Notes: generated by a model not told the origin, from the letters alone. DNA of 64,000 bases from an uncultured Gammaproteobacteria bacterium (GCA_964627245.1 CAZVGS010000001.1:89256-153255); one strand, 5' to 3'; positions 971 through 17,111 are shown, counted from the stretch's first letter. Made by a program: numbers and translations.

Positions 971-2449
971 CTAAAAGCTGAACTTAATAAAAGAACAATT
1001 GTCCGTAGTAACACCCTGGGCAGGCGTAAAGGTCTTTAGCTGAAGCTGTTTTCTTTGAGCTTCTGTCAGAGTAGGAGTTGGCGTCGGAGCGTCTACATTA
1101 TTCTGCACATTCTGCTGACCAAAGCCGAATAACCCGGCAAAGAAATTAACAATTCTTCCCCATAGACTAACCGGCTTGACATCTTCCGCTGCAAGCACAA
1201 CCTTGGTTGGATAAGCGTTAAATATTGCGGCGGTTTTTCTGGAACAGTCGGGCTTTGCTTGTATTCTGTACGTTTGGGAAGTATCAAGATCTAAAGGTAA
1301 ATCCAAATTCCAAATAGCCTGATAACGCGCCAATGTCGGCGTGTCCTCAATAACGGTTGTTGGAACAGTTTCTTTCTTTACTTGGTCAACCACCGTCCCG
1401 CTGCCTTTATAAAAGACGAAGGTAAATGTCGGAATCTTTGCATAATTTGTATTCTCGCCTTCTACTTTCCCGTATGCAGTAACTTTTGTAGTTGTTCCTA
1501 GTGCTATCGAACCAAAATCAAGGCTGTCGCATTTGCACATCGACTCATCAAAAGGCAATGGTGTTGGTGTTGCTGTTGGAGTCGGGGTTGGACTCGATGT
1601 AGGTGTTGGTGTTGCTGTTGCAGTCGGAACCGGCGTTGAAGTTGGGCTTGGAGTCGAAGTAGGCGTGGGAGCATCAGTTGGTGTCGGAGTTGGTGTGGGG
1701 GTTGGCGACTTTGGGACAGTGGGTGTCGCCGATGGCTTTGTGGTTGGAGTCGACTGTGGAGGATTTGTCGGACAAACTCCGCAGTCCTGAGGACACGTGC
1801 TGCATGTTTCACCGCCGCTGCAAACATTATTTGGACATGTTTGAGAAGGTGTTGTTGGCGTAGGAATATTAGGCGGAGTTGTGGGAGTGGGTGTGTTGGG
1901 CTTGCACTGTGTAAAACAATAACCTGCTTGAGCGTTATTTGAATTATACTTTGATGAAGAACACCAATCGTCTCCGGCAGGATTCCAATTCGTAGCTCCA
2001 TTTGGACACGCTTTTGAAAAATTTCCATTTGAATCGGCGCAATAACCGGAACCTCCGGGACAAGGGGTTGGAGGAGCGGGACAAGTCAATTTTAACTGCA
2101 TGCTGATTGCATTACCGTTAGTACCGCATGTCGGACCGCTTAGCGTTGAGGTGCATCCGGGAGGAAATTGTGAAGTGGGAATGTTGACACATCCGGATGC
2201 ATAAGGCGGACAACTGCACCGGGTCAAATTTATTGTACCCCCGGGCCCGGCAGAACCTGACTCCCCTATGCAGTTTGCACCGTTGTCTCCGGGACAGCTT
2301 GCCGTAATCACCCCTCCGGGCCAATTCGTAGCCGAAACAGTAACACTCATTTTTAAGCAATTTGCCAAATTTTGAGCATTGGCGCTTTCGACTCGCAAAA
2401 AACCAAACAAGAATGCAGAAATTATAACTAGAAAAATTTTTAATTTCAT
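971..2449 (-). CDS. Secreted Cys-rich protein with a long Pro/Thr linker (cell-surface protein)
   Basis: 492 aa. N-terminal signal peptide (MKLKIFLVIISAFLFGFLRVESANA), a Cys-rich N-terminal domain, a (PTPT)n linker of about 70 aa, then a C-terminal globular domain. The opposite-strand ORFs (1533..1790 Gly/Val-rich; 1504..2028 His/Gln-rich) are repeat artefacts. Confidence 0.6.
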   Translation of the reverse strand: MKLKIFLVIISAFLFGFLRVESANAQNLANCLKMSVTVSATNWPGGVITASCPGDNGANCIGESGSAGPGGTINLTRCSCPPYASGCVNIPTSQFPPGCTSTLSGPTCGTNGNAISMQLKLTCPAPPTPCPGGSGYCADSNGNFSKACPNGATNWNPAGDDWCSSSKYNSNNAQAGYCFTQCKPNTPTPTTPPNIPTPTTPSQTCPNNVCSGGETCSTCPQDCGVCPTNPPQSTPTTKPSATPTVPKSPTPTPTPTPTDAPTPTSTPSPTSTPVPTATATPTPTSSPTPTPTATPTPLPFDESMCKCDSLDFGSIALGTTTKVTAYGKVEGENTNYAKIPTFTFVFYKGSGTVVDQVKKETVPTTVIEDTPTLARYQAIWNLDLPLDLDTSQTYRIQAKPDCSRKTAAIFNAYPTKVVLAAEDVKPVSLWGRIVNFFAGLFGFGQQNVQNNVDAPTPTPTLTEAQRKQLQLKTFTPAQGVTTDNCSFIKFSF

Positions 2450-3381
2450 AATTTTGAAATCTCTGAGGTATTATATATCACACCGGTTTCGATTTTAGAC
2501 TTCAGCCAAGAATCATAATCCACACTTTCGCCTTTTGTTACATCTATTACATTAATTACAGCCCCTCCTGAACCGTCCGGCCAAATCCCTTTTGCAACTT
2601 GTCCCTTTTGAGAACTAAAAAGAAGTGTAAAAAATGGCTTATCTTGATCATCCGCCTCGGCCTGCAAAACCCTTGGCTGGGCAGCATCTTCAGGCTTAAG
2701 GTTAGATACCAAAGCTCCATTTAGTCCCAATATTCCTTGAAAAAGAGGATACTTTTCAGCAGTGTCCTTTACTATTGAATACGGGTCATCGCCATTTCTA
2801 AAACGGGTTTGTATCTCATTTGCCATTTCGTTTTGCACCTTCCTTTGCTCCTCAAACTCAGGCAATTGCTCGTAGGGTTCGGGAGGAATCCACCAGCTGA
2901 TATCGTACTCCGTAACCGAAACAACTTTTCCTTGAGTCACTTCACTCTTAAGTTTTTGGTAAAACTCCGCGGGCTCACCCTCAATCTTAGTGTTAAGTCC
3001 CATTAGTTGAGCTTCATTTTCCAATATTGCTCTTTCAACAGCCACCGGAATCATTTCTTTAATTACAGAACTTGTTACTGCAGACCCCAGGTATGATTCG
3101 AGAGCTATCTTTTTTACGTCAGTGTATCTGACCTCTTTATCTCCAATAGTAGCTAAGAGTACGTTTGCGGGTTCAGGCGGGGGAAGGTTGGTTGTTTTAC
3201 TATTTGTAAAAAATATAAATGCAGCAACTGCGAATACCAATATTGAAACTAAAATTCCCGCAATTACAAACATTTTTTTGGACTTTTTTGTTGGCTGCTT
3301 TGGGCTTGTGGAACCGCCGTTTTCTAATGGTGTTTCAATTGCTTCTACATCAGTTTGAGGTTTTTTTACATCATTTTCCAT
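2446..3381 (-). CDS. Membrane-anchored hypothetical protein (N-terminal transmembrane helix, extracytoplasmic domain)
   Basis: 311 aa. Basic N-terminus followed by one transmembrane (TM) helix (FVIAGILVSILVFAVAAFIFF). Overlaps the upstream gene by 4 bp (ATGA), suggesting an operon. Confidence 0.5.
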   Translation of the reverse strand: MENDVKKPQTDVEAIETPLENGGSTSPKQPTKKSKKMFVIAGILVSILVFAVAAFIFFTNSKTTNLPPPEPANVLLATIGDKEVRYTDVKKIALESYLGSAVTSSVIKEMIPVAVERAILENEAQLMGLNTKIEGEPAEFYQKLKSEVTQGKVVSVTEYDISWWIPPEPYEQLPEFEEQRKVQNEMANEIQTRFRNGDDPYSIVKDTAEKYPLFQGILGLNGALVSNLKPEDAAQPRVLQAEADDQDKPFFTLLFSSQKGQVAKGIWPDGSGGAVINVIDVTKGESVDYDSWLKSKIETGVIYNTSEISKL

Positions 3382-3387
3382 AAGAAC

Positions 3388-3948
3388 TTATAACACAAAT
3401 AACAAGAAACCGCCTACTAGAAGGATTGCAATTCCCCCAATTATAGAAACAGTTTGAAAAATGCTTCCCGGAGGCTCTATTGTGGGGGTTGCTGTCGGGG
3501 GGACAGGTGTTGCGGTTGGCGGAACCGGGGTCGGTGTATCAATGATGGCATCAGCCTCACAGAGAAGCTGGTCGGTTCCTGCAGCAGACAACCCCCCGCA
3601 AGAGCTGACAGCAACAACATCACACTTGTAAGTTCTCCCTTGAGTTATAGCAAAACTAACCTTTGCCGTGGAAGATGTTTGGGACGCATTATTTATGATA
3701 ATAGTACCTGTCTCAACTTCGGTTACCGTCACATTGAAAGACGCAGCATCAGCCTGAGTACTCCACGCGCAACTTGCGGTAGTCAAATCACAACTCTCAC
3801 CATTACAGCCCGGGTATTCAACCGTAACGCCTGTAGGGGTTGCAGGCGCTGCGCAAGCTTGAGCGTATGAAGAGTCAACTTTGGTAAGAAAAAAAATAAT
3901 TCCAAAAAGAAATATTATCAAAAACTTTTTTAGCATAAACTCTAACAC
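3388..3948 (-). CDS. Small secreted surface protein with a PT-rich linker and a C-terminal hydrophobic anchor
   Basis: 186 aa. Signal peptide, Cys-containing beta-rich domain, TPTPVPPTATP repeats, C-terminal IIGGIAILLVGGFLLFVL. Confidence 0.5.
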   Translation of the reverse strand: MLEFMLKKFLIIFLFGIIFFLTKVDSSYAQACAAPATPTGVTVEYPGCNGESCDLTTASCAWSTQADAASFNVTVTEVETGTIIINNASQTSSTAKVSFAITQGRTYKCDVVAVSSCGGLSAAGTDQLLCEADAIIDTPTPVPPTATPVPPTATPTIEPPGSIFQTVSIIGGIAILLVGGFLLFVL

Positions 3949-4137
3949 ATAAATGTATGTGTGCTTCCTATAATATACTCAGAAAATAACTTGAAGGTCA
4001 AGAGGAAATGGAAAAAATTTGTGAGCATGATGAGTATAGAATGGAACACCTTAGAATCCTCATTCATGCGAATCTATAATACTCTGAATAAGTATAACAT
4101 AGCGGTTCCTGCGTTTGCGTCTGTAGTATAATGCCGT

Positions 4138-4809
4138 ATGGAACTCCCATACAGTGAATATGTCTGGTTCTCTCCGCGATTCGCGATGAATTACCTCACA
4201 GACTTGATGAGAAAATACACTCCTGATGTTGTACTGAGAAGCCCCAAATACAAGAAAGAAAAAGAAGCATGGATTATGGGCGTAGCACTCTTCGGGGTTA
4301 TTAAAATCACCCGTGTTAGGTGGTGGTTACAAGTGCCAACTGATGACCCACCAGACATGAAGGCTATGATGTTAACGCCAGACCATGATAAAAACCTCAA
4401 TATCATGAATTATCGTGAAGTTGAAATAATGCAAATCACCAAACATACTAACGGAACTATTGTTGAGGAGATTTTGAGAAAGTTAAAGGGTAATTCATAC
4501 CCCAAGGAATGGGCACTAGTCGTCTACTTAAACCGTGCAATGTTTATAGAAGATATGCGAAAAATATCAAACGAACTCGTTGAGGCAAAACCGAAAATCG
4601 CAGATATATGGGTAGTTGCCAGCACTACACCAAATGCGAATAAATACATACTATTTTCTCTTTTCCCAGAGGTTCAGACAGTTACATACGATATTGATGA
4701 GGAGATGAGAAATTTAGAAATTGGAGACTCTATTGACCTCATGCCATACCATAAAGGTACGACAATGACATTAATCCGCAATGTTAAACGCACAAAATTT
4801 ATTCCCTGA
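4138..4809 (+). CDS. Hypothetical protein, first gene of the plus-strand mobile-element block
   Basis: 223-aa ORF with no recognisable motif. TAGTATAAT -10-like sequence about 12 nt upstream. Strand switch relative to the upstream genes. Confidence 0.45.
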   Translation: MELPYSEYVWFSPRFAMNYLTDLMRKYTPDVVLRSPKYKKEKEAWIMGVALFGVIKITRVRWWLQVPTDDPPDMKAMMLTPDHDKNLNIMNYREVEIMQITKHTNGTIVEEILRKLKGNSYPKEWALVVYLNRAMFIEDMRKISNELVEAKPKIADIWVVASTTPNANKYILFSLFPEVQTVTYDIDEEMRNLEIGDSIDLMPYHKGTTMTLIRNVKRTKFIP

Positions 4810-4881
4810 CCTCTGAATTAGCTACTGCAAACCTCAAAAAAAACTTGACTTCCTGCCCGTTATCCGATTACGGTTATCAGT

Positions 4882-5037
4882 ATGAAGTCAACACGTGCGA
4901 CAATCATACTCTCTTCAGACGTTCATGAAGCCTTAAGACGAATGGCGTTTCAAAGACGGCTAAGCATCTCAAAACTGGTCCGACTTTCCCTCATTGACTT
5001 CCTTTTGAAGCATGGGGAGAAAAGACCGGAGGAATAG
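4882..5037 (+). CDS. Ribbon-helix-helix (CopG/antitoxin-like) DNA-binding protein, 51 aa
   Basis: MKSTRATIILSSDVHEALRRMAFQRRLSISKLVRLSLIDFLLKHGEKRPEE: a beta-strand then two helices, the classic RHH pattern. Preceded by the repeated TTGACTTCCTG motif. Confidence 0.45.
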   Translation: MKSTRATIILSSDVHEALRRMAFQRRLSISKLVRLSLIDFLLKHGEKRPEE

Positions 5038-5088
5038 TATGACAGGGGTGAGATTGTCCATCCTTGCCCCGCATACTAATGATTAGCT

Positions 5089-5208
5089 ATGAGCGCAAAA
5101 GATTTAACAATGATTATAGAAATACTGGTACAGATGGATTACATCAGGATTAAGCTCGATGAAAATCAGCGGGTACTTGAGATACTGGCCAAGAGACTGA
5201 AACGATAA
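5089..5208 (+). CDS. Small hypothetical protein (39 aa)
   Basis: Compact ORF (MSAKDLTMIIEILVQMDYIRIKLDENQRVLEILAKRLKR) abutting the next gene's start at 5210. Confidence 0.25.
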   Translation: MSAKDLTMIIEILVQMDYIRIKLDENQRVLEILAKRLKR

Positions 5209-5209
5209 T

Positions 5210-5509
5210 ATGAATTTAGAATTTAACAAAACATGCGAATTATGCAGGGATGAGTTTACCCTTACCCACAGGCCACACAGAGGCGGAACAATAGTCTCAC
5301 GGTTGTGTCCTAATTGTGAATCAATCAAACCTGAGATTGAAAAGGTAATGTACGGCAAATCCTACTCAAGCGCAACGGATGAGGATAAAGCCAGAATCTT
5401 CGAACGCGCACGGGAAAACAGAACAGTCAGACGCGGACCGTTCTTCAATCCCAAAGACAACGGAACGGGCGGAAAAGTTCAGTCAGAATACGAAAGGAGA
5501 AAAAGGTAA
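5210..5509 (+). CDS. Zinc-ribbon protein (CxxC...CxxC), mobile-element early gene
   Basis: 99 aa. CELC...CPNC. N-terminus resembles the 16194..16553 ORF (K-C-x-x-C-x-x-x-F-T-x-T). Confidence 0.45.
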   Translation: MNLEFNKTCELCRDEFTLTHRPHRGGTIVSRLCPNCESIKPEIEKVMYGKSYSSATDEDKARIFERARENRTVRRGPFFNPKDNGTGGKVQSEYERRKR

Positions 5510-5712
5510 TGCCGACAAGAAATAATACAGAAGGAAAGGTATTCGGTGATATTGAGGGACAGACAAACCACCCTGAGGGACTGGACATGACAAAACAGTT
5601 AAAAATGAGGGAAGGACAGCGCAGCGGATTGGTCAGAATGGGAGTACCGAAAAGCATCGTCAGAGCAAGTATCAATCAGGCTCAGTTTAAGCCTACAAGA
5701 AAGGGTAAATAA
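5509..5712 (+). CDS. Small hypothetical protein
   Basis: 67-aa ORF. Its ATG overlaps the upstream stop (ATGA), typical phage-like packing. Confidence 0.35.
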   Translation: MPTRNNTEGKVFGDIEGQTNHPEGLDMTKQLKMREGQRSGLVRMGVPKSIVRASINQAQFKPTRKGK

Positions 5713-5785
5713 TGATCACTTACTGTTCGGAATGCGGGTACAGACTTTTCCGGGGTAAATACCGATACTACTGTATTAACAAAGA

Positions 5786-5968
5786 ATGCTTATGATAGAT
5801 GAATTACTTGATGATATGGCAATTGAGATTGAACGGCTAATGGTAAGCGATGCGGTTAAAGCCCGCCTGAGATTACAGCTTGCAGAGCTTGCGGATAATA
5901 CCCAGGAGCTACGGCTGAAAGCACTATTTGACTGTATTCTGTTCGAGGCCAAAAAACTAAACACATGA
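5786..5968 (+). CDS. Small hypothetical protein
   Basis: 60-aa ORF overlapping the next gene by 4 bp. Confidence 0.3.
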   Translation: MLMIDELLDDMAIEIERLMVSDAVKARLRLQLAELADNTQELRLKALFDCILFEAKKLNT

Positions 5969-6264
5969 AACTATACGAAAAAGCAATAAAACAACTGGAG
6001 CGGGATAAACCTAAGGTAACTATTGAGGATAACACAGCCAAGAGAATAGAAATCCTGAACAAACTGTTACAGGCAGAATACGGATTCATTGAGCAGAACA
6101 AAGATGAAGTAACGAAAGAGCTGAAAGGACGGTTCAAAGAAACCCTGATAAATGAAGTACTTGAAGAGATTAAGAATCACAGCAATACCGGTAAAACACC
6201 GTACTATGTAGGACTACAGATCGCCAGCGATACGGTACAAAAACGAAAGGGAAAACAGCAATAA
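5965..6264 (+). CDS. Small hypothetical protein (charged, helical)
   Basis: 99-aa ORF, translationally coupled to its neighbours. Confidence 0.35.
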   Translation: MKLYEKAIKQLERDKPKVTIEDNTAKRIEILNKLLQAEYGFIEQNKDEVTKELKGRFKETLINEVLEEIKNHSNTGKTPYYVGLQIASDTVQKRKGKQQ

Positions 6265-6265
6265 T

Positions 6266-6613
6266 ATGAAACAAAATAAGACCATTTCCCCCTTAGAAGG
6301 AAATAATGAGGAAGCCGAACAGGCTACAAAAGAGATACGGTCAGGCAAGTCAGCTAGTGGAAAGAAATCTTCCCCCCCCGTTCCCCGTCCCCAACAAACA
6401 CCGTTTAAGATAAACAAACTCTCGGATATCCGCAAAGCAAGTAAGGTACTCATGACTGATTTAATCAACAAGGAGGGCAGGTTCACGGTTGCAGAAAGCA
6501 GAGTATTCAAGGACATGGCAGAGCTGTACTTTAAGGCGGAGGAGAACATTACAACCAAGAGACTAATGAATAAGCTGAAGAAAGAAAACGACACGGACAG
6601 AAAGGGGCGGTAG
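6266..6613 (+). CDS. Hypothetical protein with an internal C8 homopolymer tract
   Basis: 115-aa ORF. C8 run at 6372-6379 encodes SSPPVP. Confidence 0.35.
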   Translation: MKQNKTISPLEGNNEEAEQATKEIRSGKSASGKKSSPPVPRPQQTPFKINKLSDIRKASKVLMTDLINKEGRFTVAESRVFKDMAELYFKAEENITTKRLMNKLKKENDTDRKGR

Positions 6614-6760
6614 CGCAGGGGTATGGGTACTGAATAAACTGTACGGTATTTCAATGATGCTACACCACCCCCCACCTATACCTACACCCCGCGCGGTGGG
6701 ACACGGGTAAAGGGAGTGACATATAGAGGAAGTACTTAACGGTGTACAGAAGGTAACCCA

Positions 6761-7006
6761 TTGAAGCGAACTCTTATAAATTTTTTGGGAGATTTTTGTC
6801 ATAATAACTGTATGAATGATACCAACTTTCTAATTTCTCTGGCTATTGGTTTTGTTATATTTTTACTTTTTTCATTTAGTGGCCCAAAAACGCATCGCGA
6901 TCCATTCTATGGTGATATTGATAACATTTCGCATAGTATTGCTGTTGGATTGATCTGTATGGGGGCAACGTACAGTATTTTGCAAATTATTAGTAGTATG
7001 TTTTGA
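6761..7006 (+). CDS. Small membrane protein
   Basis: 81 aa with two hydrophobic helices. Confidence 0.3.
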   Translation: MKRTLINFLGDFCHNNCMNDTNFLISLAIGFVIFLLFSFSGPKTHRDPFYGDIDNISHSIAVGLICMGATYSILQIISSMF

Positions 7007-7042
7007 TGTCCCAATTTGACAAAGATTGATTAGCACGATACG

Positions 7043-7399
7043 GTGTATAAGCTTGGTAAAGGATACTATGGCAGTATTCTAATCTACAAAGGAGCATCTC
7101 TCAGGAGGTGCTTTTTTGTGTCTATTTGGTATAATGAATTAATGGATTATAAAACTGCCAGTGAGCTACTTAGAGAACTTTCTCTACTTTGGATATGGGA
7201 AGCCGGAAACTATAATAATAAAATTCCATCCAACTTGCTTACCCGGGATCTTTGTTATTATGACCAGGCGTGCGACTATTTACGACGATTTCCTAAAACA
7301 GGTGATCTTGAACGTGTGGCCCTCGCTCAAATGCAGATGAATTACATTGACGATATTGAGGGGAATAATGAAATGGAAAAATTATTTTCCATCCTCTAA
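7043..7399 (+). CDS. Hypothetical protein
   Basis: 118-aa ORF. Confidence 0.3.
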   Translation: MYKLGKGYYGSILIYKGASLRRCFFVSIWYNELMDYKTASELLRELSLLWIWEAGNYNNKIPSNLLTRDLCYYDQACDYLRRFPKTGDLERVALAQMQMNYIDDIEGNNEMEKLFSIL

Positions 7400-7528
7400 C
7401 CTTTTAATTACATCAGCTCTTCTCTTCCGTACTTCATCAAGGAGTTTCTTACGTCTTTCACGGACTTCATTGTACATGGGTTTTACTACTACTCGTGGCT
7501 TTCTAAACTTCCCGTATTCAGTCATACG

Positions 7529-7822
7529 TTAGTACTCTCCTACGCGTTCAGCCCATTGAGGAGGTGTTCTTTCGTCCTCTTCGCTATGTAATTGAGTTTC
7601 AAATGATATTTTCGAGGCGTGTTCTATAGTGGAATCTTTACCTACTTCGCCACCTATTCCGAGTACGGTAATTCCTACTTTTCCGCCTCCCTTGTCACTC
7701 TTGGTAACTGCAATATCAAATTTAACGGAGCTTGAAACATAATTACCGCCAGTGTGAGCGTCCTTTATCTGCCTGAGGCTTTCTTGTATGAAGTCTTTTA
7801 GTTCGTTATTTTCGTCTGCCAT
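7529..7822 (-). CDS. Small Gly-rich hypothetical protein
   Basis: 97-aa ORF (GGGKVGITVLGIGGEVGKD). Sits 1 nt downstream of the 7824..8291 gene's stop, possibly in the same operon. Confidence 0.35.
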   Translation of the reverse strand: MADENNELKDFIQESLRQIKDAHTGGNYVSSSVKFDIAVTKSDKGGGKVGITVLGIGGEVGKDSTIEHASKISFETQLHSEEDERTPPQWAERVGEY

Positions 7823-7823
7823 A

Positions 7824-8291
7824 TTATACGGTTACCTTCTTTTTCTTGAACCTTCTGTATCCTAAATATCCCAATCCCCCAAGTAGTGCCATTGCCACAA
7901 CCCCACCACCTCCACTATCTTCACTCGCTCCCTGAACGGCTATGGTTGGTGTAGGCTCTTTGGGCGAGGGTGTATTCGTGGGTTCATCCGTAGGTTCAGC
8001 GGTAGGAGTAGGAGTATTGGTAACAGCACGGGTTGGTATTCTCGAGGGTGCGGTTGTGTTTATCGGTGCAAATTGTTTTACGGGTGCGGTTGTTGCAACG
8101 GGTGCACTTTCAACCCTTTTTACGCTTCCGTCTGGGTTATGGTGGTGATATTCTCCAGAGCCTAAACCCCATTCTTCGCAATTAGTACGGCATCTATGAC
8201 CACCGCTCCCGTCGGTCCCTCCAGGATGGGCTTCTATAGGGGAAACAGATATATAGAAGAGCAGGGATAAGATAAGTAAAGTTTGATACAT
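7824..8291 (-). CDS. Secreted His/Cys-containing protein with a PT linker and a GlyGly-CTERM-like anchor
   Basis: 155 aa. Signal peptide, HPGGTDGSGGHRCRTNCEEW...YHHH, PT-rich linker, C-terminus SGGGGVVAMALLGGLGYLGYRRFKKKK. Confidence 0.5.
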   Translation of the reverse strand: MYQTLLILSLLFYISVSPIEAHPGGTDGSGGHRCRTNCEEWGLGSGEYHHHNPDGSVKRVESAPVATTAPVKQFAPINTTAPSRIPTRAVTNTPTPTAEPTDEPTNTPSPKEPTPTIAVQGASEDSGGGGVVAMALLGGLGYLGYRRFKKKKVTV

Positions 8292-8310
8292 TAACCAGTA
8301 TTATACTCCT

Positions 8311-10227
8311 TTAATCGTGCCAAATGTCATTACCTCTCGCATCCATACCTAACCACTGCTGAGATTTTTCTAATTCCTCACGCCAGTACCACCCGCCGGG
8401 AACTTTTTCTTCTGTCTTTTTCTTAATAGCTGGTTTCCGTGTTGGGGTCGGAGACGGAGCTTCAGTTGTTATCGGGCTAGGGGTAACTGATGGTATTGCG
8501 TTTACCGTTGCTACCGGAGAAAGAATTTCGAGAGCACTCACTTCTTTTATCTTTGTTGCCGAATCAAATAAATAGTAAGTAGTAAATCCAGATACAGTTG
8601 CAAATACAGAGATGAAAATAATGATTTGACTTACAGTGAGATAATTAGCTCTAATGTGTGAAAATGCATAATTAATCCGTTTTGATAGGGGTGGGATTTC
8701 ACTTAACCGTCTTTTGGTATTTCTCATCTGTACAACCAAAATAAACGTTATTATGAAATTCCAAAAAATCCAGAATTGAATAGAAAAATAATCAATATCA
8801 AATAAATGAATATCCCCTGTCCTTAGCCCAATCAGAATTAGAATAGTATAGAAAGTGAAATATATGGTTACAAACCGTGTCGTTTGTGAGAAAGCATGAG
8901 AGACAGATTTGTGTTTCGCGTTAGTTGAAACCCATCCGACAGATTTTTTGAACAATGCGGTTTTTACTGCGTGGGAATACGCATAAGTTCGAGCCATGAG
9001 AATTCCAAAATACCCGAATCGAAATTTAGCGACTGGGAATAACCACAGGTAAACAATTGCAAAAATTAAGTGAGGGTAAAAGAGCAAACTCTTACCGAGA
9101 GGAATATATTCATTGTATAAGAACAGTGTCCAAAAGAGATGGAAAGAGAAGAGGATCATCAAAGGGTGATGTAAATAGAACATAAACCCGGTAATAAAGC
9201 AGAATTTGGTTTTCCACGATGTCTTACCTTTCCAGAAAAATTTTGAAAGCATTAATCGCAAACTACCCATACACCATCTATGTTGTTGGTGGAAAAAGGC
9301 GTATTGATTATCCGGGCATAATCCAATAGATAGAAGTATCGGTACAAATAGAACCCTTAAACCTACTCTTGAAATAGCGTACCCAGTATGAGCATCTTCA
9401 CTGTATTCAATCTGATAGGGTCCGCCGATTGCCTCGATTGCACTTCTCCGATACAATGCACACGAACCACAGCATATAGCCCCCCCGAATCGACTTCTCG
9501 TCACTTGAATAAATCGGTAAAATGGCTCTTCGGCAAATGCTGCGTTATATGCGAATTTTGATTTTTTATATGCATTATCTGACAAATCAAAGTATTGAGG
9601 CGTTTGAACAATTCCGACAGTTGGATCATCCATATACGGGAGCGTTTCTTTTATAAAATCGGGATGGGGTGCGAAATCAGCATCAAAGATTGCGATAAAA
9701 TGACCATTAGACCTCTCAAAAGTATGTTTCAAATTTCCAGCCTTTTTCATATGTCCCTTATTCGGCCGTTCCATATAAACGAATCCAAAGTGTTGAGCCA
9801 ATTCTTTATGCGCCTCGAAATTTTCCTTCGAATCATCCAATACGTATACGGTTTTATTTTTATAGTTAATGTTTGATACGTGTTCCCAGGTATTTCTGAG
9901 TACGTCAACTTCTTCACCACAAATAGGCAAGAAAATATCAACGGGGGGTTCTTTGTCATATGATTTTACAAGTGCAAAGTGTTTCAGCAAGTCAAATTGA
10001 CGGTAAAACAAGTTAAGGCCAAAGCTGGCAAGGTGATAAATAGAGAGTAGTATAAAAATTGGAATGACAAAAAATGAATAAAACGGGTCTATCCCTATGA
10101 CGTTCCAGTACCCAAGCATAATCAAGATCCATGAGAAAATCCCAAATCCATACAGTAATCTAACTTTCCAGGTGGGAGTTTTTTCAATATACAGGTACTT
10201 ATTAATTGTCGAGGGGTTGGGGAGCAT
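8311..10227 (-). CDS. Processive family-2 glycosyltransferase (cellulose/chitin/hyaluronan-synthase-like), membrane-embedded
   Basis: 638 aa. Two N-terminal TM helices; catalytic motifs VLDDS, IFDADF, VGIVQTPQYF and QQHRWCMGS (QxxRW). Multiple C-terminal TM helices. PT-rich C-terminal tail ending ...PGGWYWREELEKSQQWLG. Confidence 0.75.
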   Translation of the reverse strand: MLPNPSTINKYLYIEKTPTWKVRLLYGFGIFSWILIMLGYWNVIGIDPFYSFFVIPIFILLSIYHLASFGLNLFYRQFDLLKHFALVKSYDKEPPVDIFLPICGEEVDVLRNTWEHVSNINYKNKTVYVLDDSKENFEAHKELAQHFGFVYMERPNKGHMKKAGNLKHTFERSNGHFIAIFDADFAPHPDFIKETLPYMDDPTVGIVQTPQYFDLSDNAYKKSKFAYNAAFAEEPFYRFIQVTRSRFGGAICCGSCALYRRSAIEAIGGPYQIEYSEDAHTGYAISRVGLRVLFVPILLSIGLCPDNQYAFFHQQHRWCMGSLRLMLSKFFWKGKTSWKTKFCFITGFMFYLHHPLMILFSFHLFWTLFLYNEYIPLGKSLLFYPHLIFAIVYLWLFPVAKFRFGYFGILMARTYAYSHAVKTALFKKSVGWVSTNAKHKSVSHAFSQTTRFVTIYFTFYTILILIGLRTGDIHLFDIDYFSIQFWIFWNFIITFILVVQMRNTKRRLSEIPPLSKRINYAFSHIRANYLTVSQIIIFISVFATVSGFTTYYLFDSATKIKEVSALEILSPVATVNAIPSVTPSPITTEAPSPTPTRKPAIKKKTEEKVPGGWYWREELEKSQQWLGMDARGNDIWHD

Positions 10228-10232
10228 ACGAA

Positions 10233-10532
10233 CTAGTTACCACCATTTCGTACACGGGACACAAAATCTCTAATTCTTTGTTGAAAGTCATTGTTATATT
10301 CTTTGAATTCTGGATTACGAACAGCTTTACAGCTTGGATAAGAAATTTGTCGATTAAATGGAAGTTCGCGTGTTACAGTCTGACAAACAATAGTTACAGG
10401 TGTATGAGGATTATCATAAATTGGCGGTGTTACTCCACCTCCACCATAAGCAGAAGCTGTTGGAACGTTAAATAAGAATACGGAGAGAATAAATGTGAGT
10501 ATAAATAACTTTTTCATCCTTAAAAGCATCAT
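10233..10532 (-). CDS. Small secreted protein
   Basis: 99 aa with a cleavable signal peptide (MKKLFILTFILSVFLFNVPTASA). Confidence 0.4.
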   Translation of the reverse strand: MMLLRMKKLFILTFILSVFLFNVPTASAYGGGGVTPPIYDNPHTPVTIVCQTVTRELPFNRQISYPSCKAVRNPEFKEYNNDFQQRIRDFVSRVRNGGN

Positions 10533-10789
10533 AACAGATGCATCTTATAATATCAATACCCATTTCTTACAATATTTTAATTTTTGAAAACTTGACTTCC
10601 TGTCCGTTAGTACGATAGGGTTTCATCATAAGCTAAACAGCCAAGCACTAGCACTTAGCGACTAATCGTATTTTCGAGAGGTCGCTTTTTTTGTGGCTGG
10701 AATGTTGAAAAGCGGGGGTTCCTCCTTCAACAAGGGGTCCATAATGCCCCCGCCTTTGAGCCTTTCAGTTAAATGATACAAGGTTAAAT

Positions 10790-11062
10790 ATGAAGAAAGT
10801 AAGCAGAAACAATTTATACAGAGAGATAGACAAATTATTCCTTTGGTTAATTCAGTTACCCGATACTGATGCCGATGAGGATAAGTCTTTGCGTGAAATT
10901 CAGAAACATCTTGTCAGGTTATCAAATCTGAAAAGTGAGGAATACACTCAGGAAGCTCCTGAACAGCCGGAACAACCGCAACAGCAGGAACCGCAAAAGC
11001 CGTTAACCGATATGCAACGAAAAATTATGAGCGGGGAAATCTCGATAGGAGGACAGGAATAA
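10790..11062 (+). CDS. Hypothetical protein (acidic, Q/P-rich C-terminus)
   Basis: 90-aa ORF, first gene after the second copy of the TTGACTTCCTG motif and the conserved leader. Confidence 0.4.
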   Translation: MKKVSRNNLYREIDKLFLWLIQLPDTDADEDKSLREIQKHLVRLSNLKSEEYTQEAPEQPEQPQQQEPQKPLTDMQRKIMSGEISIGGQE

Positions 11063-11063
11063 A

Positions 11064-12101
11064 ATGGCTTGGGGCGAACAGGGACAGAAAATTACATGGA
11101 CACCGAACGTAGTTTCAGACGATAAGAAACAACACGGCGGATGGTATGACAATCCTTCAACGGGATATAACCAACGGTGGTACTCAGGCGGTGCAACCAG
11201 TGAAAACGGTAACTCTTCCTCTAGTGGCTTCTCAATTCCTCAACCTGATATGGAAGCAATCAATCGGGAGTATCAGCCTATTTATGAGAATTATGCCCGT
11301 GATGAGCAGTTCTTAAAAGAATCCCAGGCAAGTGAGCAGGAAATGCTTAATGACAATTTTACTCTTGCCGATACCCGACTTGATAGGAATAAAACGGAGC
11401 GCGAGTTACACAACAAGGAACAGGAAACTACACTTAATAATCAATACCGCTCAGCGTACGAGGAAGTAGTACGCGCACAGAACGCATTAACACAGCAGGG
11501 AAATGTACGATTCGGAGGCACATCTTCAGCGGGTCGGGCTATGGGAGAAATCGCACAAAGTGAATTCTTCCGACAGTCAGGAAAAATACAGAATACCCAT
11601 CTTGAGAATATAGGCAGAATTCAGTCCGATTGGAGAAAATATCTTTCTTGGCATGCGGACGAAGAGCAAAGACTGGTCCAGGAGAAAAGACACGAAACCA
11701 CAAAACTTCAAAACACGTACAAACAGATGTATGTTCAGATTGCAAATAACCGTAACATCACAAAATCAGAACAGGCACGGGCACAGCGCAACGCTCAGGA
11801 AACATACCAGGCACGTAAGGCAGACCTTGAGAACTCTATCAAACTCAGACAGATGGCAATGGATGAGTACGCCCAAAAACTCAGAATGGAACTTGATGCG
11901 CAAATTGAGTTAGCGGGTAAAACAGCCTATTCGGTATCGGATAACACGTTTGCAAGTGATACTCAGTCAGATGTTGACGGTGTAAGTTATGTTCCTTCCG
12001 AGAACGGCAGTCTTATGAATATGAATACCAGTTATGTAAATCCGTTCGCACGCGCACGATACAGCGATGATGAATTTGAGGATAATCCTTATTTCGCTTA
12101 A
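11064..12101 (+). CDS. Hypothetical protein with a Q/N-rich coiled-coil region (possible virion/structural protein)
   Basis: 345-aa ORF abutting its neighbours. No enzymatic motif. Confidence 0.45.
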   Translation: MAWGEQGQKITWTPNVVSDDKKQHGGWYDNPSTGYNQRWYSGGATSENGNSSSSGFSIPQPDMEAINREYQPIYENYARDEQFLKESQASEQEMLNDNFTLADTRLDRNKTERELHNKEQETTLNNQYRSAYEEVVRAQNALTQQGNVRFGGTSSAGRAMGEIAQSEFFRQSGKIQNTHLENIGRIQSDWRKYLSWHADEEQRLVQEKRHETTKLQNTYKQMYVQIANNRNITKSEQARAQRNAQETYQARKADLENSIKLRQMAMDEYAQKLRMELDAQIELAGKTAYSVSDNTFASDTQSDVDGVSYVPSENGSLMNMNTSYVNPFARARYSDDEFEDNPYFA

Positions 12102-12106
12102 TAACT

Positions 12107-15100
12107 ATGGAATTAAAATCACTGCTCAGAGACGTTTCACGCCGTTATAACGAATATAACCGTAAACAGAAAAAACCACGCATACAGCCGAGTCTTATTG
12201 AAGATGTCGGGAACCGATTCCGCTCATTCGTAAAAGAACAGTCTCAGGAAGGCCAACCGCTCCACAAAATAACCCGCACCATTCAGGAATTACCGTTAGT
12301 TACACAACGCGAAGTAGATGAGGTCGGGACCCGCTTTCGCTCTTTCGTGGATGAAAGACAAAAAAATGTTGATGATGTGGGTAAACGATTCGGGGAATTC
12401 AAAGTAAAGGCTTCTCAGTTTTCAAAGGATTATGACCCGTTCAACTTTGATGAAAAAGCCCCGATAAATCAGCTTCCCGTTCTCGGCGATATCCGCAGAA
12501 CATTACAGCCGTATACAAATCCTTATAAATTAGGTCCTATGGAACTGATGCGCAGAAATACGGAACTCATGCAAAAAGAGAGTAAAGGAATTGCATTGAC
12601 CGATGAGGAAAAGGAATTTCAGAAGTATTACATGACCGAACAGGCTTCTATGGTTATGCCGATGGGTACGGTCGGTAAAGTGGCAAAACCCGCATTAACC
12701 GCATTGCAGAAAGAAGCCGTAAAGAAATTACCTAAAATACTCTATGAATTTGATGCTAAGACCGCAAACAAGGTAATTGATGAAGCAAAAGGAGCCTCTA
12801 AAGAATGGGTTGATGAATTCAAATCATGGGTAAATACCAGAGCATCCGCACAGCTTCAGGGACTGAATCAGCGGATGAAATTCAAGGATATGGATTCTGA
12901 GGGAATTGCAGGTATTTTTAAGTTCCAGGCAGGAGACAAGACGGGACGGTTTGCCGATGTGAAGAAATTTTTTGATTCCCGCTATTCAGAACTTCAGAAA
13001 GCAGGAGTTGAATTCAGATATAAACAGGAGTATCTACCGCAACTATGGCTTAATTCAAAAGAAGAGGTTGAGGAACGGCTCGGACGAACTCTTACTTCCC
13101 GTCCTTCCTTCTCTCTTCGATCAGTAATTGAGAATTATCAGAAAGGAATAGCTAACGGACTAAAACCGCGCTTTCAGACATTATCGGAACTTATCGGATG
13201 GTATGAGGCAAAAACGGCCAAAGTTATAGCGGATCAGAATTTTTACAACTACATGAAGAAGGCAAAGTATATTCTTCCTGAGGATACGGCTCCTGCATGG
13301 TGGAAAACGATAGATTCCGAGAAGTTTCCGAAGTTCACGGTTAAAGTAGGTTCGGAGGTTAAGAATCTGAACTATAAAGCTGAGGGAAGAATTGCGGATG
13401 CTATTAACAATTATCTTAATGACCCTGAAGGAGCATTACCAGCTTTTGCTGACTTTGCCACGAAGGTTAAGAATCTGGGATTATCGGCAGGCGTACCCCA
13501 TACTTCAATTAACTTTCACGGCTATAACATCTTCGTCCGTTCGGTCCTGGCAAGTAATAACCCCGTATCTTCTATTTTCAGAACAGGCCAATGGATGCTT
13601 AAACCCAAAATTGCGGAACGGTTTGTTATGAATAACCTTGAGGATGCGCAGTATTTTGTTAAAAACGGCATGACCATGAGTACCGAGGATTACGGACTGT
13701 TCGAGGCGGTTGAGAAGGTTAAAAAAAGCGGTGTAATTAATAAGACATTAGATAAATATGAGGAATGGTTCGGGGACCCTCTGTTTAAGAAATCCCTTCC
13801 CGCAATCAAAATTCAGTATACCCGCGCATTGTTTGATGATTTACTCAAAACATTGCCTGAAGAGGAAGCGGTAAAGATAGCCGTAAAAAGCGCAAATGAT
13901 GTATTCGGGGGAATTAATTTGAATGAACTGATGCGCAACAAACAAACACAAAATGTACTCCGTTCCGTTCTGCTCGCGCCAGACTGGGCTGAGTCTACAA
14001 TCAGAATGGGTAAAGGAATTGTTAAAGGAGTTGCCAACCCGTTAAGCCCCGAGTACAAAGCATACCGTACTTTTGCCAAAAACATGGTATTCGGGTATAT
14101 CACGGCCAACGTTGTGAATAAAGCTCTGTCAGGTCACTGGATGTTTGAAAATGAAGGTAACAATAAATTCAATATTGATACCGGTACATATACGGGAGAC
14201 GGTAAGAAACGGTACTTCAGAATCTGGGGTACGGCCGTTGATTTTGCCAGACTTCCTGTTGATATCGTTAACGGTCTCTCAAAAGGCGATCCGTCAGCAT
14301 TTGTCAGAACCTTCACTAACCGCTTATCCATGCCTGTAGGTTCAGCAGGACATTTACTATTCAATAAAGATTATCTCGGACGGCCCGTATACGGAAAAGA
14401 CCAATGGGGAAATGAAATCGACCCTATACAGTCAGCAGGAGGCATAACAAATGAAGTATTACGCGGTGTCGGAACTCCTACTCAGGTAATGGCGGGTATT
14501 GATTTACTTACAGGGCGTTCAAATCCCGAACAGGCTCTTGCTCAGTCACTTGAACTTCCGATGCGATATCAGGGAGGAGCAAGCTCGGACACACAGAAAA
14601 GAAGAAATGCAGCGTTTCAGTCTCTCGGCTTTGAAGGCGAAGCATTAGCCCGCGAAATGGAGAGAACAAAGGGTATGAGATATTCGGGAAGTCAGGGAGA
14701 AGAAAAGTCACTGCTTGACCATATCGGAGAAAAGTTCATGAGCGTATTCGGTAAGAAAGAACCTAACAGACCTCAGCCGAATGACCCGCTTACAAAGGCT
14801 TTTCTTGCGGATATCGAAAAGGATGAGAATGCTACCCGTGTAAGAGAAGTATTCAAATTAGGTTTAAGCAAGGAACAGACAGAACAGTTACTTGAAAAGG
14901 AAGGATTAGGTACGTATGAAGAAGCTGAATTGATAATTATGAAAGCTCTCGGTGTTGAGAACGGAACTCGTGGAAATTACATTCAGGAGATTACAAAGGG
15001 AATGGATGATGAAAGTAAAGAGGCCACTCTTTCCTATCTGGCCGAGAACGAAATTCTGACTACCTCAGTTATATCCCAATGGGTTGATGACGGGGAAATA

Positions 15101-15391
15101 ACAGACGAGGAAGCCGATTATCTGAAGGACCTGATTAAAAAAAGTAAAGGAACGTACAAAGGTCCGAAGGCAAAAGGCGGTAAGAAAGCGGGCGCAAAGA
15201 AAGTAACGGCAGGAAGTATCCCGACAATTAAGATTCCTACTTTTGCGGGCGGTACGGTTAAGAGTGTCAGCAAGGCATATTACAAACCGATACCAAAGAT
15301 TACCTATGAAAGACCTACGCCTACTTCAAAACAAAAAGTATCAGCTCCGAAGCCTGAGACTAATTTTAAATCATACGGAGGGAACAACTAA
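12107..15391 (+). CDS. Large (1094-aa) hypothetical protein of the mobile element, mostly helical with a Lys-rich C-terminus
   Basis: Long uninterrupted ORF. No Walker A motif and no TM segments, so it is neither a terminase nor a classic tape-measure protein. Size and position suggest a virion-associated or DNA-transfer protein. Confidence 0.5.
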   Translation: MELKSLLRDVSRRYNEYNRKQKKPRIQPSLIEDVGNRFRSFVKEQSQEGQPLHKITRTIQELPLVTQREVDEVGTRFRSFVDERQKNVDDVGKRFGEFKVKASQFSKDYDPFNFDEKAPINQLPVLGDIRRTLQPYTNPYKLGPMELMRRNTELMQKESKGIALTDEEKEFQKYYMTEQASMVMPMGTVGKVAKPALTALQKEAVKKLPKILYEFDAKTANKVIDEAKGASKEWVDEFKSWVNTRASAQLQGLNQRMKFKDMDSEGIAGIFKFQAGDKTGRFADVKKFFDSRYSELQKAGVEFRYKQEYLPQLWLNSKEEVEERLGRTLTSRPSFSLRSVIENYQKGIANGLKPRFQTLSELIGWYEAKTAKVIADQNFYNYMKKAKYILPEDTAPAWWKTIDSEKFPKFTVKVGSEVKNLNYKAEGRIADAINNYLNDPEGALPAFADFATKVKNLGLSAGVPHTSINFHGYNIFVRSVLASNNPVSSIFRTGQWMLKPKIAERFVMNNLEDAQYFVKNGMTMSTEDYGLFEAVEKVKKSGVINKTLDKYEEWFGDPLFKKSLPAIKIQYTRALFDDLLKTLPEEEAVKIAVKSANDVFGGINLNELMRNKQTQNVLRSVLLAPDWAESTIRMGKGIVKGVANPLSPEYKAYRTFAKNMVFGYITANVVNKALSGHWMFENEGNNKFNIDTGTYTGDGKKRYFRIWGTAVDFARLPVDIVNGLSKGDPSAFVRTFTNRLSMPVGSAGHLLFNKDYLGRPVYGKDQWGNEIDPIQSAGGITNEVLRGVGTPTQVMAGIDLLTGRSNPEQALAQSLELPMRYQGGASSDTQKRRNAAFQSLGFEGEALAREMERTKGMRYSGSQGEEKSLLDHIGEKFMSVFGKKEPNRPQPNDPLTKAFLADIEKDENATRVREVFKLGLSKEQTEQLLEKEGLGTYEEAELIIMKALGVENGTRGNYIQEITKGMDDESKEATLSYLAENEILTTSVISQWVDDGEITDEEADYLKDLIKKSKGTYKGPKAKGGKKAGAKKVTAGSIPTIKIPTFAGGTVKSVSKAYYKPIPKITYERPTPTSKQKVSAPKPETNFKSYGGNN

Positions 15392-15393
15392 TT

Positions 15394-15579
15394 ATGAATA
15401 AAAAGTGTCTTACATGCGGGACGGAATTACAGAAACGAAAACATGAAAGCCGGGCAAGATTTGAAAAAAAGCAGTTCTGTACGGCCGAACATGCCAGGAC
15501 ACATATGAAGGAAACAGGGCGTGGCTGGTGGAATCCGGAATTTGATAGAGGAAAACTCAGAGCAAAGGGGGTGAATTAA
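15394..15579 (+). CDS. Small zinc-ribbon protein
   Basis: 61 aa, CLTCG...C..H. Confidence 0.35.
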   Translation: MNKKCLTCGTELQKRKHESRARFEKKQFCTAEHARTHMKETGRGWWNPEFDRGKLRAKGVN

Positions 15580-15581
15580 AT

Positions 15582-15776
15582 ATGAACAAAGACCAATTAA
15601 GAGATGAAATGCAACAGGTAGCTTATGACACTATTCGGGGCGTTTCAGGACAACAGGTAAACGAGATTGATTACAAGAACGCGCTTGTATCAAAAACTCA
15701 GGAAGTCGTTGACGGAGCATATCAGCTCGGTTATAACGCGGGCTTTGAGGCGGGCAAAAACGCGCCACAAGGTTAA
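15582..15776 (+). CDS. Small hypothetical protein
   Basis: 64-aa ORF, 2 nt after the previous stop. Confidence 0.3.
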   Translation: MNKDQLRDEMQQVAYDTIRGVSGQQVNEIDYKNALVSKTQEVVDGAYQLGYNAGFEAGKNAPQG

Positions 15777-15808
15777 GAAATATTAAAAATGAAAGGAGGT
15801 GTAAAAAT

Positions 15809-16201
15809 ATGATTCGCAGAGATAAAACAAATTACGATCCTAACAAGGATAAATACAACTGGACGAACGACATGTACCGACAGGATGAGCTTTCTAACAG
15901 GGATTTAGAAGAACAGAAAGCGATAATCAATAACTGGCAGGCTATGAGTGAAAGTAAAAATGAAGCTGAAAAAGCCGAATGGGAACTGAACAGAAGAATT
16001 GCAGCGGTTACCGAAACGGATAATGCAGACATCAGACAGAAAGAGGCAATTAAGAGATACAAAATAGCCCAAAAATATGACGAGATAATCCGTAGCAAAA
16101 TGACAAGAGGCCAGACAGAGGAAGAATTTGAAGAAGAACGTCATGAATACGGAGCATTGCATCGCAGGGCTTTAAAAGAGGCTATGCGGTCAATTGAATA
16201 A
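15809..16201 (+). CDS. Hypothetical charged helical protein
   Basis: 130-aa ORF. Overlaps the next gene by 8 nt. Confidence 0.35.
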   Translation: MIRRDKTNYDPNKDKYNWTNDMYRQDELSNRDLEEQKAIINNWQAMSESKNEAEKAEWELNRRIAAVTETDNADIRQKEAIKRYKIAQKYDEIIRSKMTRGQTEEEFEEERHEYGALHRRALKEAMRSIE

Positions 16202-17042: not shown

Positions 17043-17111
17043 ACCCTTTTCGGGTGCTGTTGTTCTAACTGCTTCAAACACGGCACAGCACTACCCGAAA
17101 GGGGTTTTTTA
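17043..17111 (+). terminator. Intrinsic (Rho-independent) terminator ending the ORF-free region
   Basis: Imperfect long hairpin (ACCCTTTTCGGGTGCTGT ... ACAGCACTACCCGAAAGGGG) followed by TTTTTTATT. Confidence 0.55.

Follow-up and report, generated by a model that had tools for sequence, protein, structure and literature searches.

Is a glycan synthase operon that lies within a small mobile element part of that element, as exchangeable cargo, or is it host DNA caught between two insertions? The question is raised by a stretch of 64,000 nucleotides (hereafter the window) from the assembly of an uncultured bacterium (GCA_964627245.1, CAZVGS010000001.1:89256-153255). The carrier belongs to the Candidate Phyla Radiation (CPR), with a Microgenomates/Levyibacteria-like chromosome. 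An original prediction, made from the sequence alone, had placed in this window a minus-strand block of four open reading frames (ORFs), among them a membrane glycosyltransferase of family 2 (GT2), as inverted cargo inside an element. We report here that the block is probably a captured, moron-type operon sitting in a variable slot of the element, with a promoter-like site of its own, and that it would make and export a beta-glycan by means of a PilZ-less, wall-tethered BcsA-type synthase and a secreted subunit.

The GT2 operon probably occupies a variable slot of an integrated element

An integrated element of about 15.4 kb (~4810-20233), bearing a serine recombinase, lies beside a tRNA-Lys(CTT) gene. 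Coordinates of its features are collected in Table 1. The four minus-strand ORFs were found as predicted, between two plus-strand blocks, A and B, and are separated by gaps of 5, 19 and 1 nt from the 99-aa to the 97-aa ORF. A fifth ORF at the end of the operon, encoding 47 aa, had been missed.

The right junction of the operon was settled by comparison with the closest related element, L006, and on this point the DNA alignment is decisive. Block B is colinear in the two elements, with 41-68% identity at the protein level, and the DNA homology starts exactly at AAACTTGAC, position 10588 of the window, which is the -35 of the backbone promoter. From there, likeness judged by eye exceeds 80% through the leader and into the 90-aa gene. 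To the left of 10588 the two differ: the minus strand of the window bears the GT2 operon, and in L006 its place is taken by a restriction-modification (R-M) cassette, with plus-strand genes for a DNA methylase, R.HinP1I and Vsr. In other relatives the place 5′ of the hallmark module of block B is filled differently again, by a primase-helicase in L007 and by three small ORFs in L008. None of the four element relatives fetched (L005-L008) carries a GT2.

An arrangement resembling the empty site was found in locus L103. A homologue of the 223-aa flank gene, two minus-strand tRNA genes and a GIY-YIG gene (40% identical to the one at 20320-20682 of the window) follow each other there in direct series, with no GT2, which is the order expected if ~4810-20206 were removed from the window. 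With a single recombinase beside tRNA-Lys, another cargo at the same junction in L006 and this empty-site-like locus, the earlier assignment of the GT2 block as cargo inside an element was upheld.

The alternative is that the block is resident host DNA lying between two independent insertions, one of block A and the other of block B with the recombinase. Codon composition was examined in this respect. The G+C content at third codon positions (GC3) was 0.344 for the cargo and 0.338 for the host, compared to 0.425 and 0.415 for blocks A and B. In per-gene Mann-Whitney tests on GC3, the cargo differed from the backbone (p=0.008) and was not distinguishable from the host (p=0.79). Such host-like values fit a module recently captured from a CPR chromosome; as the cargo resembles the host and differs from both plus-strand blocks, they also speak for resident DNA. 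So does the occurrence of the GT2 and its small partner as a chromosomal pair in other CPR bacteria: a 67%-identical GT2 with its partner was found among GatCAB, DnaE and M48 peptidase genes (L002, L003). Finally, no relative was found in which blocks A and B are contiguous.

Against two insertions stand a series of observations. There is only one recombinase, and block A has none, so that a second insertion without recombinase would be needed. Blocks A and B share a GC3 of 0.42, and both are headed by a promoter-like repeat of 23 nt, AAAACTTGACTTCCTG[C/T]CCGTTA, whose two copies are identical at 22 of 23 positions, include a TTGACT -35 box, and resemble each other over ~45 nt if gaps are allowed. 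These are the only two matches to this sequence in the 64 kb, for none expected in shuffled sequences. The repeat may be a shared operator-promoter, and its position ties both plus-strand blocks to one regulatory scheme. In L008, an element integrated in a 66-kb contig, a plus-strand block of small ORFs, three unrelated minus-strand ORFs and the hallmark module succeed each other on one side of the recombinase, which is the same plus/minus/plus layout within one element. L006 has other cargo at the identical junction, and in L103 no GT2 separates the flank gene from the tRNAs and GIY-YIG gene. The total size also agrees with that of relatives of 14-16.5 kb. With two insertions, the promoter sequence shared by A and B and the likeness to relatives in size and layout would all have to be coincidences. 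We therefore consider resident host DNA very unlikely, and retain the cargo interpretation.

The 638-aa protein is a BcsA-type GT2 that differs from BcsA proper

The motifs announced for the GT2 were all present (DDS131, DAD182, QTPQYF208, QQHRW314), together with KAGN162, CCGS252 and SED276, the latter at the TED position; E277 and D278 are invariant in the family. Pfam recognised GT2 families only (1e-20 to 3e-13). Among NCBIfam models, TIGR03030 CelA came first (1.4e-51, 175.4 bits for an equivalog cutoff of 699.1) and NF008558 second (3e-38, 131.2 bits for a cutoff of 992); these cellulose synthase models were followed by NodC (2e-19, 70 bits), HpnI, PgaC (40 bits) and MdoH (28 bits). In a phmmer search of the PDB, BcsA of R. 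sphaeroides and E. coli were the only highly significant matches (~2e-33). The alignment to BcsA structures 4hg6/5ej1 spans KAGN, DAD, QTPxxF, xxCGS, (T/S)ED, QxxRW and the TxAK of the gating loop. At this last position, WVSTNAK (432-438), a variant of the FxVTxK that follows IF3, aligns to FAVTAK of BcsA; W432, T435 and K438 are conserved in at least 90% of the family. A family alignment of 70 sequences contained 40 invariant columns, catalytic residues included, and the window GT2 keeps all 40.

An AlphaFold2 model built on this 70-sequence alignment was confident (pLDDT 85.6, pTM 0.81) and resembled BcsA. The 8 best Foldseek matches in the PDB were all BcsA chains (E-values 4e-22 to 6e-17, TM-score ~0.5 over 540-580 columns; 9b8v_E at 4e-22 and 4p00_A at 2e-20 among the best), and they were followed by plant CesA, Chlorella virus hyaluronan synthase, CslF6 and chitin synthases. 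We conclude from the motifs, the sequence and the predicted fold that this protein of 638 aa is a processive GT2 of BcsA type.

By the same kinds of evidence it is not BcsA proper. Pfam found no PilZ domain in it, its C-terminal end consisting of an extra transmembrane (TM) helix and a disordered tail rich in proline and threonine (PT-rich), and its score lies under the equivalog cutoff. None of the ORFs scanned in the block and the element matched a BcsB, BcsZ or BcsC family; its neighbours are the 99-aa secreted protein, the YHYH protein and two small ORFs. The predicted architecture starts with two N-terminal TM helices, followed by a GT-A domain, interface helices and four TM helices. A long extra helix, the ninth (514-563), follows the last BcsA-equivalent helix in the AlphaFold2 model, and then comes the disordered tail. 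The announced PT-rich extension was located at residues 566-~605 and leads into a Trp-rich motif of ~30 aa, GGWYW..L.K.Q.W.G.D..G.DIW.D, that is common to homologues P0002, P0003 and P0011. By helix counting, we infer that this tail is outside the cell. Many GT2 paralogues carry a peptidoglycan-binding domain (PF01471 PG_binding_1), which was C-terminal in the tail sequences read, and an outward tail in the window GT2 fits with this.

The end of the tail (aa 594-638, 8311-8445; GGWYW..Q.W.G.D) weakly resembles GGWYDNPSTGYNQRWY, at aa 21-40 (11124-11183) of the 345-aa protein of the element, an N-terminal motif that is conserved in L006. This likeness scored 12.6 bits in a tiny database, may be due to chance, and was too weak to be used.

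The likeliest substrate is UDP-glucose, which would be polymerised into a beta-glucan. A BcsA-fold enzyme might instead make another product: a GlcNAc polymer (of chitin, poly-N-acetylglucosamine (PNAG) or hyaluronan type), a glucan with beta-1,3 or mixed linkages, or a short glycolipid. The scores, well under the CelA and BcsA equivalog cutoffs (175 against 699 bits, 131 against 992), and the lack of PilZ and BcsB leave room for this, as do the Foldseek probability of 1.0 obtained for hyaluronan synthase, chitin synthases and CslF6 as well, and the best viral structural match, M1HTG7, which has no assigned product. The CelA model, on the other hand, is far ahead of NodC (70 bits), PgaC (40) and MdoH (28), and KAGN, xxCGS and the gating-loop TxAK align to BcsA. 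We give a product other than beta-1,4-glucan a definite but minor chance.

A small secreted protein accompanies the GT2 in its closest relatives

The signal-peptide protein described next to the GT2 is present, with a start that should be revised: translation probably begins at M6 (ATG at 10517; MKKLF...ASA), which gives a protein of 94 aa. A promoter-like site, the top scorer in 3800-11200 (10/12), is found just 5′ of this likely true start and overlaps the upstream ATG of the 99-aa ORF. No clear terminator was found for the operon. The protein has a signal peptide with cleavage between ASA and YGGGG, two conserved Cys and a C-terminal helix. Its homologues, although only 31-39% identical to it, have the same cleavage site and mature N-terminus (A followed by YGGG), the two Cys and the C-terminal helix. 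They were found directly 5′ of the GT2 in 8 loci (L001, L089, L002, L003, L004, L100, L101, L102), whose GT2s are 57-69% identical to that of the window. No partner homologue was found 5′ of the other GT2s examined, of 46-57% identity (L091-L094, L096-L098). Judging from this conservation, the small signal-peptide protein is a real companion of the GT2.

Genes 3′ of the GT2 are not conserved across GT2 loci. The protein announced as His/Cys-rich and secreted, with a sorting-like tail, does have a signal peptide and a C-terminal TM anchor, followed by KKKK, as read from the sequence. It is a YHYH-domain protein (NF033223 YHYH_alt, 30.5 bits, just at the cutoff of 30), and no LPXTG-type sorting signal was found in it. 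For the 97-aa protein, the Pfam match to Trypco2 was sub-threshold (E-value 0.0075, 16.9 bits for a cutoff of 24.2). Neither the 97-aa nor the 47-aa protein belongs to a significant family, and neither had a PADLOC or PHROG match.

In L100 (2920-4632) and L102 (4724-5578), the closest full-length relatives, a polytopic membrane protein of ~570 aa is encoded directly 3′ of the GT2; unlike these loci, the window operon lacks it. The C-termini of P0012 (1091 aa) and P0037 (1112 aa) are, by eye, similar to this membrane protein, which suggests that it is fused to the GT2 in these two proteins and hence functionally linked to it.

A further possibility is that the cargo serves the spread or maintenance of the element itself, by providing a glycan for particles, vesicles or contact, or that it acts in anti-phage defence as the R-M system of L006 would. 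The same slot holds that R-M system in the closest relative, and defence genes are the usual content of comparable slots in prophages and satellites. The YHYH domain is a predicted Zn-binding hydrolase domain associated with phage tails (Iyer et al., PMC7824862), and the GT2 tail has the faint likeness to the 345-aa protein mentioned above. This likeness is weak, however (12.6 bits, tiny database). As no GT2 was found in L005-L008, the enzyme is not needed for the life cycle of the element, and PADLOC gave no match for the four smaller cargo proteins, the GT2 being outside that scan. Both versions seem unlikely to us, and a surface-modifying operon captured as cargo is the interpretation that we keep.

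The GT2 family is common in CPR bacteria and is found in other mobile and viral contexts

The original prediction held such synthases to be uncommon in reduced genomes. This has to be abandoned: 2691 homologues were found at E≤1e-5, and the source-named sequences among the 120 best listed are almost all from CPR bacteria (Paceibacterota, Uhr-, Zambryski-, Kaiser-, Gottesman- and Taylorbacteria), some of them in chromosomal contexts. The best non-self matches among these 120 lie between 73% and 43% identity. For the window GT2 itself and for P0001, a look-up of the exact sequence returned no gene on record.

Scanning viral contigs with one protein as query (the GT2 or the 223-aa protein) gave nothing. 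An alignment-based scan detected 24 IMG/VR contigs with GT2 relatives of 31-48% identity. In one of the viral contigs, L108 (35.9 kb), which has PHROG matches to a terminase large subunit (2e-28) and a major head protein (1.6e-8), the GT2 is preceded by a 98-aa signal-peptide protein with AYGGGGGG, in the same position as the partner of the window. Matches at 31-35% were also obtained in two GVMAG contigs and in three from IMG/VR that measure 288-331 kb. The best structural match in BFVD is M1HTG7, an unnamed protein of 520 aa (32% identity over 507 columns, TM-scores 0.72/0.88). Among 50,697 deposited phage records, the sole genuine phage with a homologue is Synechococcus phage S-CBWM1, whose protein is annotated as a putative cellulose synthase (27%, E-value 2e-37).

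In L001 (421-5611) and L089 (7479-12977), a 69%-identical GT2 and its partner are flanked by a diversity-generating retroelement (bAvd, RVT_1) on one side and by a different, unrelated large serine recombinase on the other, with a tRNA-Ser gene ~7 kb further on. These loci may represent another mobile context for the GT2 module.

The backbone and the ends of the element

Table 1. Features of the integrated element and its surroundings in the window.
Feature	Position	Strand	Description
Host flank gene (probable), 223 aa	4138-4809	plus	No Pfam match; marks the left edge of the insertion
Promoter-like repeat, copy 1 (23 nt)	4840-4862	plus	Left end, 5′ of the 51-aa ORF
51-aa ORF	4882-5037	plus	Reads like a ribbon-helix-helix regulator (from sequence; no Pfam match)
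Block A	4882-7399	plus	Small ORFs, 2.5 kb
Cargo operon	7382-10532	minus	Five ORFs, intergenic gaps of 1-19 nt
Fifth ORF, 47 aa	7382-7525	minus	Basic, Lys/Arg-rich; begins 3 nt past the stop of the 97-aa ORF
Gly-rich protein ORF, 97 aa	7529-7822	minus	No signal peptide evident by eye
YHYH-domain protein ORF, 155 aa	7824-8291	minus	Signal peptide, YHYH domain, PT-rich linker, C-terminal TM anchor
GT2 ORF, 638 aa	8311-10227	minus	BcsA-like processive synthase-translocase
Small secreted partner ORF, 99 aa	10233-10532	minus	First gene of the operon
Promoter-like site of the cargo operon	10556-10528	minus	TTGATA-17-TATGAT with extended TG; consensus match only
Promoter-like repeat, copy 2	10587-10609	plus	Heads block B
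Backbone restart	10587-10789	plus	Repeat copy 2 and a structured leader of ~180-190 nt, before the 90-aa gene
Block B, hallmark module	10790-16553	plus	90, 345 and 1094 aa, then 61, 64, 130 and 119 aa; one with zf_Tbcl
1094-aa hallmark protein	12107-15391	plus	Three N-terminal VGxRFxxFV repeats, Lys-rich C-terminus
Winged helix-turn-helix (wHTH) protein, 138 aa	17690-18106	plus	Like the N-terminal domain of phage replication initiators
Large serine recombinase	18557-20233	plus	Pfam Recombinase 3.6e-7 (above cutoff); Resolvase and Zn_ribbon_recom sub-threshold
tRNA-Lys(CTT)	20207-20279	minus	Intact; ARAGORN, Rfam 68 bits
Host GIY-YIG gene	20320-20682	minus	PF01541 2.2e-12; synteny marker by the tRNAs

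Block A contains no recombinase and gave no match with Pfam, PHROG or PADLOC. The first copy of the 23-nt repeat lies 31 nt past the stop of the 223-aa gene. This gene has homologues of 61-67% identity in chromosomal neighbourhoods, such as that of trigger factor, ThrRS, IF3, L35/L20 and PheRS in L105; its GC3, 0.411, is backbone-like.

The leader that follows the second copy (10610-10789) contains a terminator-like hairpin, GCGAC..GTCGC, then a run of seven T, then a second hairpin, GCGGGGG..CCCCCGC. By eye, it is more than 80% identical to the corresponding region of L006 (2457-2650), above the neighbouring proteins (41-68% at the amino acid level). Its terminator and 24 nt are repeated at 17192-17215 (region 17150-17260). 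From its sequence, the leader could be an attenuator or an antitermination RNA; an Rfam search of the conserved leader gave no credible match.

The 1094-aa hallmark protein and the 345-aa protein had no informative sequence match in the PDB and no Pfam or PHROG family, and the 1094-aa protein had no match in the phage collection. A word-indexed search with the 1094-aa protein returned only 7 relatives, whose loci show the same module beside a serine recombinase; besides L006, it is found in L005, L007 and L008. An exhaustive profile search returned 3393 representatives at E≤1e-3, 802 of them at ≤1e-30, which makes it a member of a very large, uncharacterised family. When five long homologues were submitted to Pfam, a single unrelated HATPase_c domain was found. 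AlphaFold2 gave only a low-confidence model for the 1094-aa protein (pLDDT 53.9), which resembles phage proteins with a "large polyvalent protein associated domain", a predicted match that we take as a lead only. The 138-aa wHTH protein matched PF13730 HTH_36 (3.5e-10), phrog_270 (7e-13) and phrog_186 (3e-12). The replication module is exchanged in relatives, for a DnaG/DnaB-type primase-helicase in L007 and for a primase-polymerase with a D5 helicase in L005.

Other contigs with the hallmark protein measure 14.3-16.5 kb, L005 being an IMG/VR contig of 16.5 kb. L007 (15,214 bp) begins, by the recombinase, with the 3′ end of a tRNA gene (1-32), and its last positions (15175-15214) are the 5′ part of another tRNA gene. 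Bounded in this way by tRNA fragments, it is read as an integrated copy of ~15.1 kb between tRNA genes, whose assembly was broken at the tRNAs. In L005, the region 4705-9216 encodes a primase-polymerase, a D5-like helicase and a 265-aa protein with a borderline Terminase_6N match (22.5 bits for a cutoff of 22), the sole packaging hint in this element family. In the window element, no capsid, terminase, portal or tail gene was found with Pfam or PHROG.

The recombinase is present in a single copy, and its last 27 nt overlap the tRNA-Lys gene. A search for a tRNA-derived attachment (att) repeat or inverted att half-sites returned chance-level k-mers only; the absence of att repeats is normal for serine recombinases. 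Beyond the tRNA, the GIY-YIG ORF as listed overlaps a tRNA-Arg gene (20655-20682), and its true start is probably the internal Met before YKVYVLES.

On the other side, the minus-strand region 971-3948 was considered as part of the element for its raised G+C content (0.45-0.48 locally), and rejected: GC3 and relative synonymous codon usage are host-like (r=0.87), and the G+C content comes from codons for Pro and Thr, which could mislead as a sign of foreign DNA. Its three host-like genes encode proteins that have a signal peptide or are membrane-bound, and that contain long PT-rich linkers; one is Cys-rich (492 aa) and one has a C-terminal hydrophobic anchor. A contig scan with a host GT2 of 345 aa gave 80 loci in many phyla, among which only L009 (Levyibacteriota, 63%) is syntenic, without the tRNA site; this query was too generic to be used.

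Discussion

How the operon might work can be proposed as follows. Its transcription would start at its own promoter-like site and diverge from that of the backbone. By homology, the GT2 would polymerise a UDP-sugar at the cytoplasmic face and thread the beta-glycan through its own TM channel. The ninth helix would place the PT/Trp-rich tail outside, where other members have their peptidoglycan-binding domain. The signal-peptide-YGGGG protein would be a clade-specific partner subunit, and the membrane-anchored YHYH protein would be another extracytoplasmic component. A CPR chromosome is the probable source of the module, whose activity would add or alter a surface glycan in the carrier cell. 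As the same slot holds an R-M cassette in L006, it appears to gather genes that protect or benefit the carrier, and receptor masking, superinfection exclusion and adhesion are the leading guesses for the benefit brought by the GT2.

A number of points weigh against this interpretation, or limit it. Regarding the element, its left boundary is ambiguous (~3950-4137 or ~4810-4845), as the 223-aa gene has a backbone-like GC3, and neither end shows an att repeat or an inverted-repeat signature, which leaves both approximate. No relative shares block A, which leaves the left edge of the slot undefined, and L103 is a distant locus (67% identity at the protein level) with different tRNAs. Resident DNA between two insertions would also be expected to have the host-like codon usage seen in the cargo. 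The window has no recognisable capsid, terminase or conjugation genes that would indicate how the element is transmitted. Regarding the operon, its promoter is a sigma-70-like consensus match only, and such sites in total are not above shuffle expectation. The CelA equivalog score is far under the cutoff (175 for 699 bits), and, without PilZ or BcsB, neither product nor regulation can be transferred from BcsA. We nevertheless hold cargo in a variable slot to be the probable explanation.

Compared to known systems, the GT2 is closest in sequence and fold to BcsA (R. sphaeroides 4hg6/4p00; E. coli 9b8v), with which it shares a GT-A domain with D, DxD, (T/S)ED, QxxRW, KAGN, xxCGS and, in a variant gating loop, TxAK, the interface helices and the TM channel. 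It differs from it by its low identity (~20%), by having only two TM helices before the GT domain, by the lack of the PilZ cyclic di-GMP domain and of BcsB, and by the extra C-terminal TM helix with its outward PT/Trp-rich tail. Streptomyces CslA is presumably a similar case, a PilZ-less BcsA-like GT2 of a single-membrane bacterium with small or extracytoplasmic accessories encoded next to it. The operon described here differs in having no GlxA-type oxidase; its partners are a YHYH protein and a secreted YGGGG protein of ~70 aa, and it is located on a mobile element.

Membrane-embedded synthases of BcsA or hyaluronan synthase fold are also borne by viruses, as in the case of Chlorella virus hyaluronan synthase (7sp6), M1HTG7 and the S-CBWM1 protein. 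Those are found in lytic giant viruses or a large cyanomyovirus, whereas the carrier here, in a CPR host, is an integrated 15-kb element in which virion genes cannot be recognised. Among prophage morons, gtrABC seroconversion cassettes and defence hotspots, similar features are an opposite-strand unit, a promoter-like site of its own, a distinct composition and a presumed effect on the surface; as in defence or cargo hotspots, an R-M cassette replaces the cargo in the nearest relative. GtrB, however, is a GT2 of the non-processive type, with a lipid-linked sugar as its product, and the enzyme of the window is of the processive synthase-translocase type. The chromosomal BcsA-like GT2s of CPR bacteria, many of them with PG_binding_1, belong to the same family and have the same core, and the closest subclade has the small upstream partner. 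The window copy differs from them by being on a mobile element and by the ~30-aa Trp-rich tail that replaces PG_binding_1.

The carriage of glycosyltransferases by mobile elements and viruses is already an established idea, also for CPR bacteria, and the value of the present case is incremental. It is a new example of mobile DNA bearing surface-sugar genes, a member of the BcsA-superfamily synthases and of moron or cargo genes, and not a new type of system. Published surveys describe glycosyltransferases as common in viruses of CPR bacteria, where they are interpreted as modifying the surface (PMC11310336; see also PMC12911398). We found no paper specifically on cellulose-synthase-like genes in CPR mobile elements.

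The locus nevertheless provides a compact module made of a GT2, a ~70-aa partner and a YHYH protein, in which a PilZ-less, wall-tethered variant of BcsA that is common in CPR bacteria appears here in mobile form. It also defines, with an exact junction, a cargo slot in a family of small integrative elements, which could be mined for further defence or surface genes. CPR bacteria rely on their cell surface for host attachment and phage resistance, and almost nothing is known experimentally of their envelope glycans. As a tentative extension, which we regard as possible and no better than that, these elements could form a widespread, undescribed class of ~15 kb, integrated by a serine recombinase next to tRNA genes and recognisable by the ~1100-aa hallmark protein with its thousands of uncharacterised relatives. 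Their slot would swap defence and surface modules between CPR cells, and the exopolysaccharide of the BcsA-like operon would alter, in an episymbiotic CPR cell, phage recognition or host attachment. If this were true, surface glycans would count among the horizontally mobile traits of CPR bacteria.

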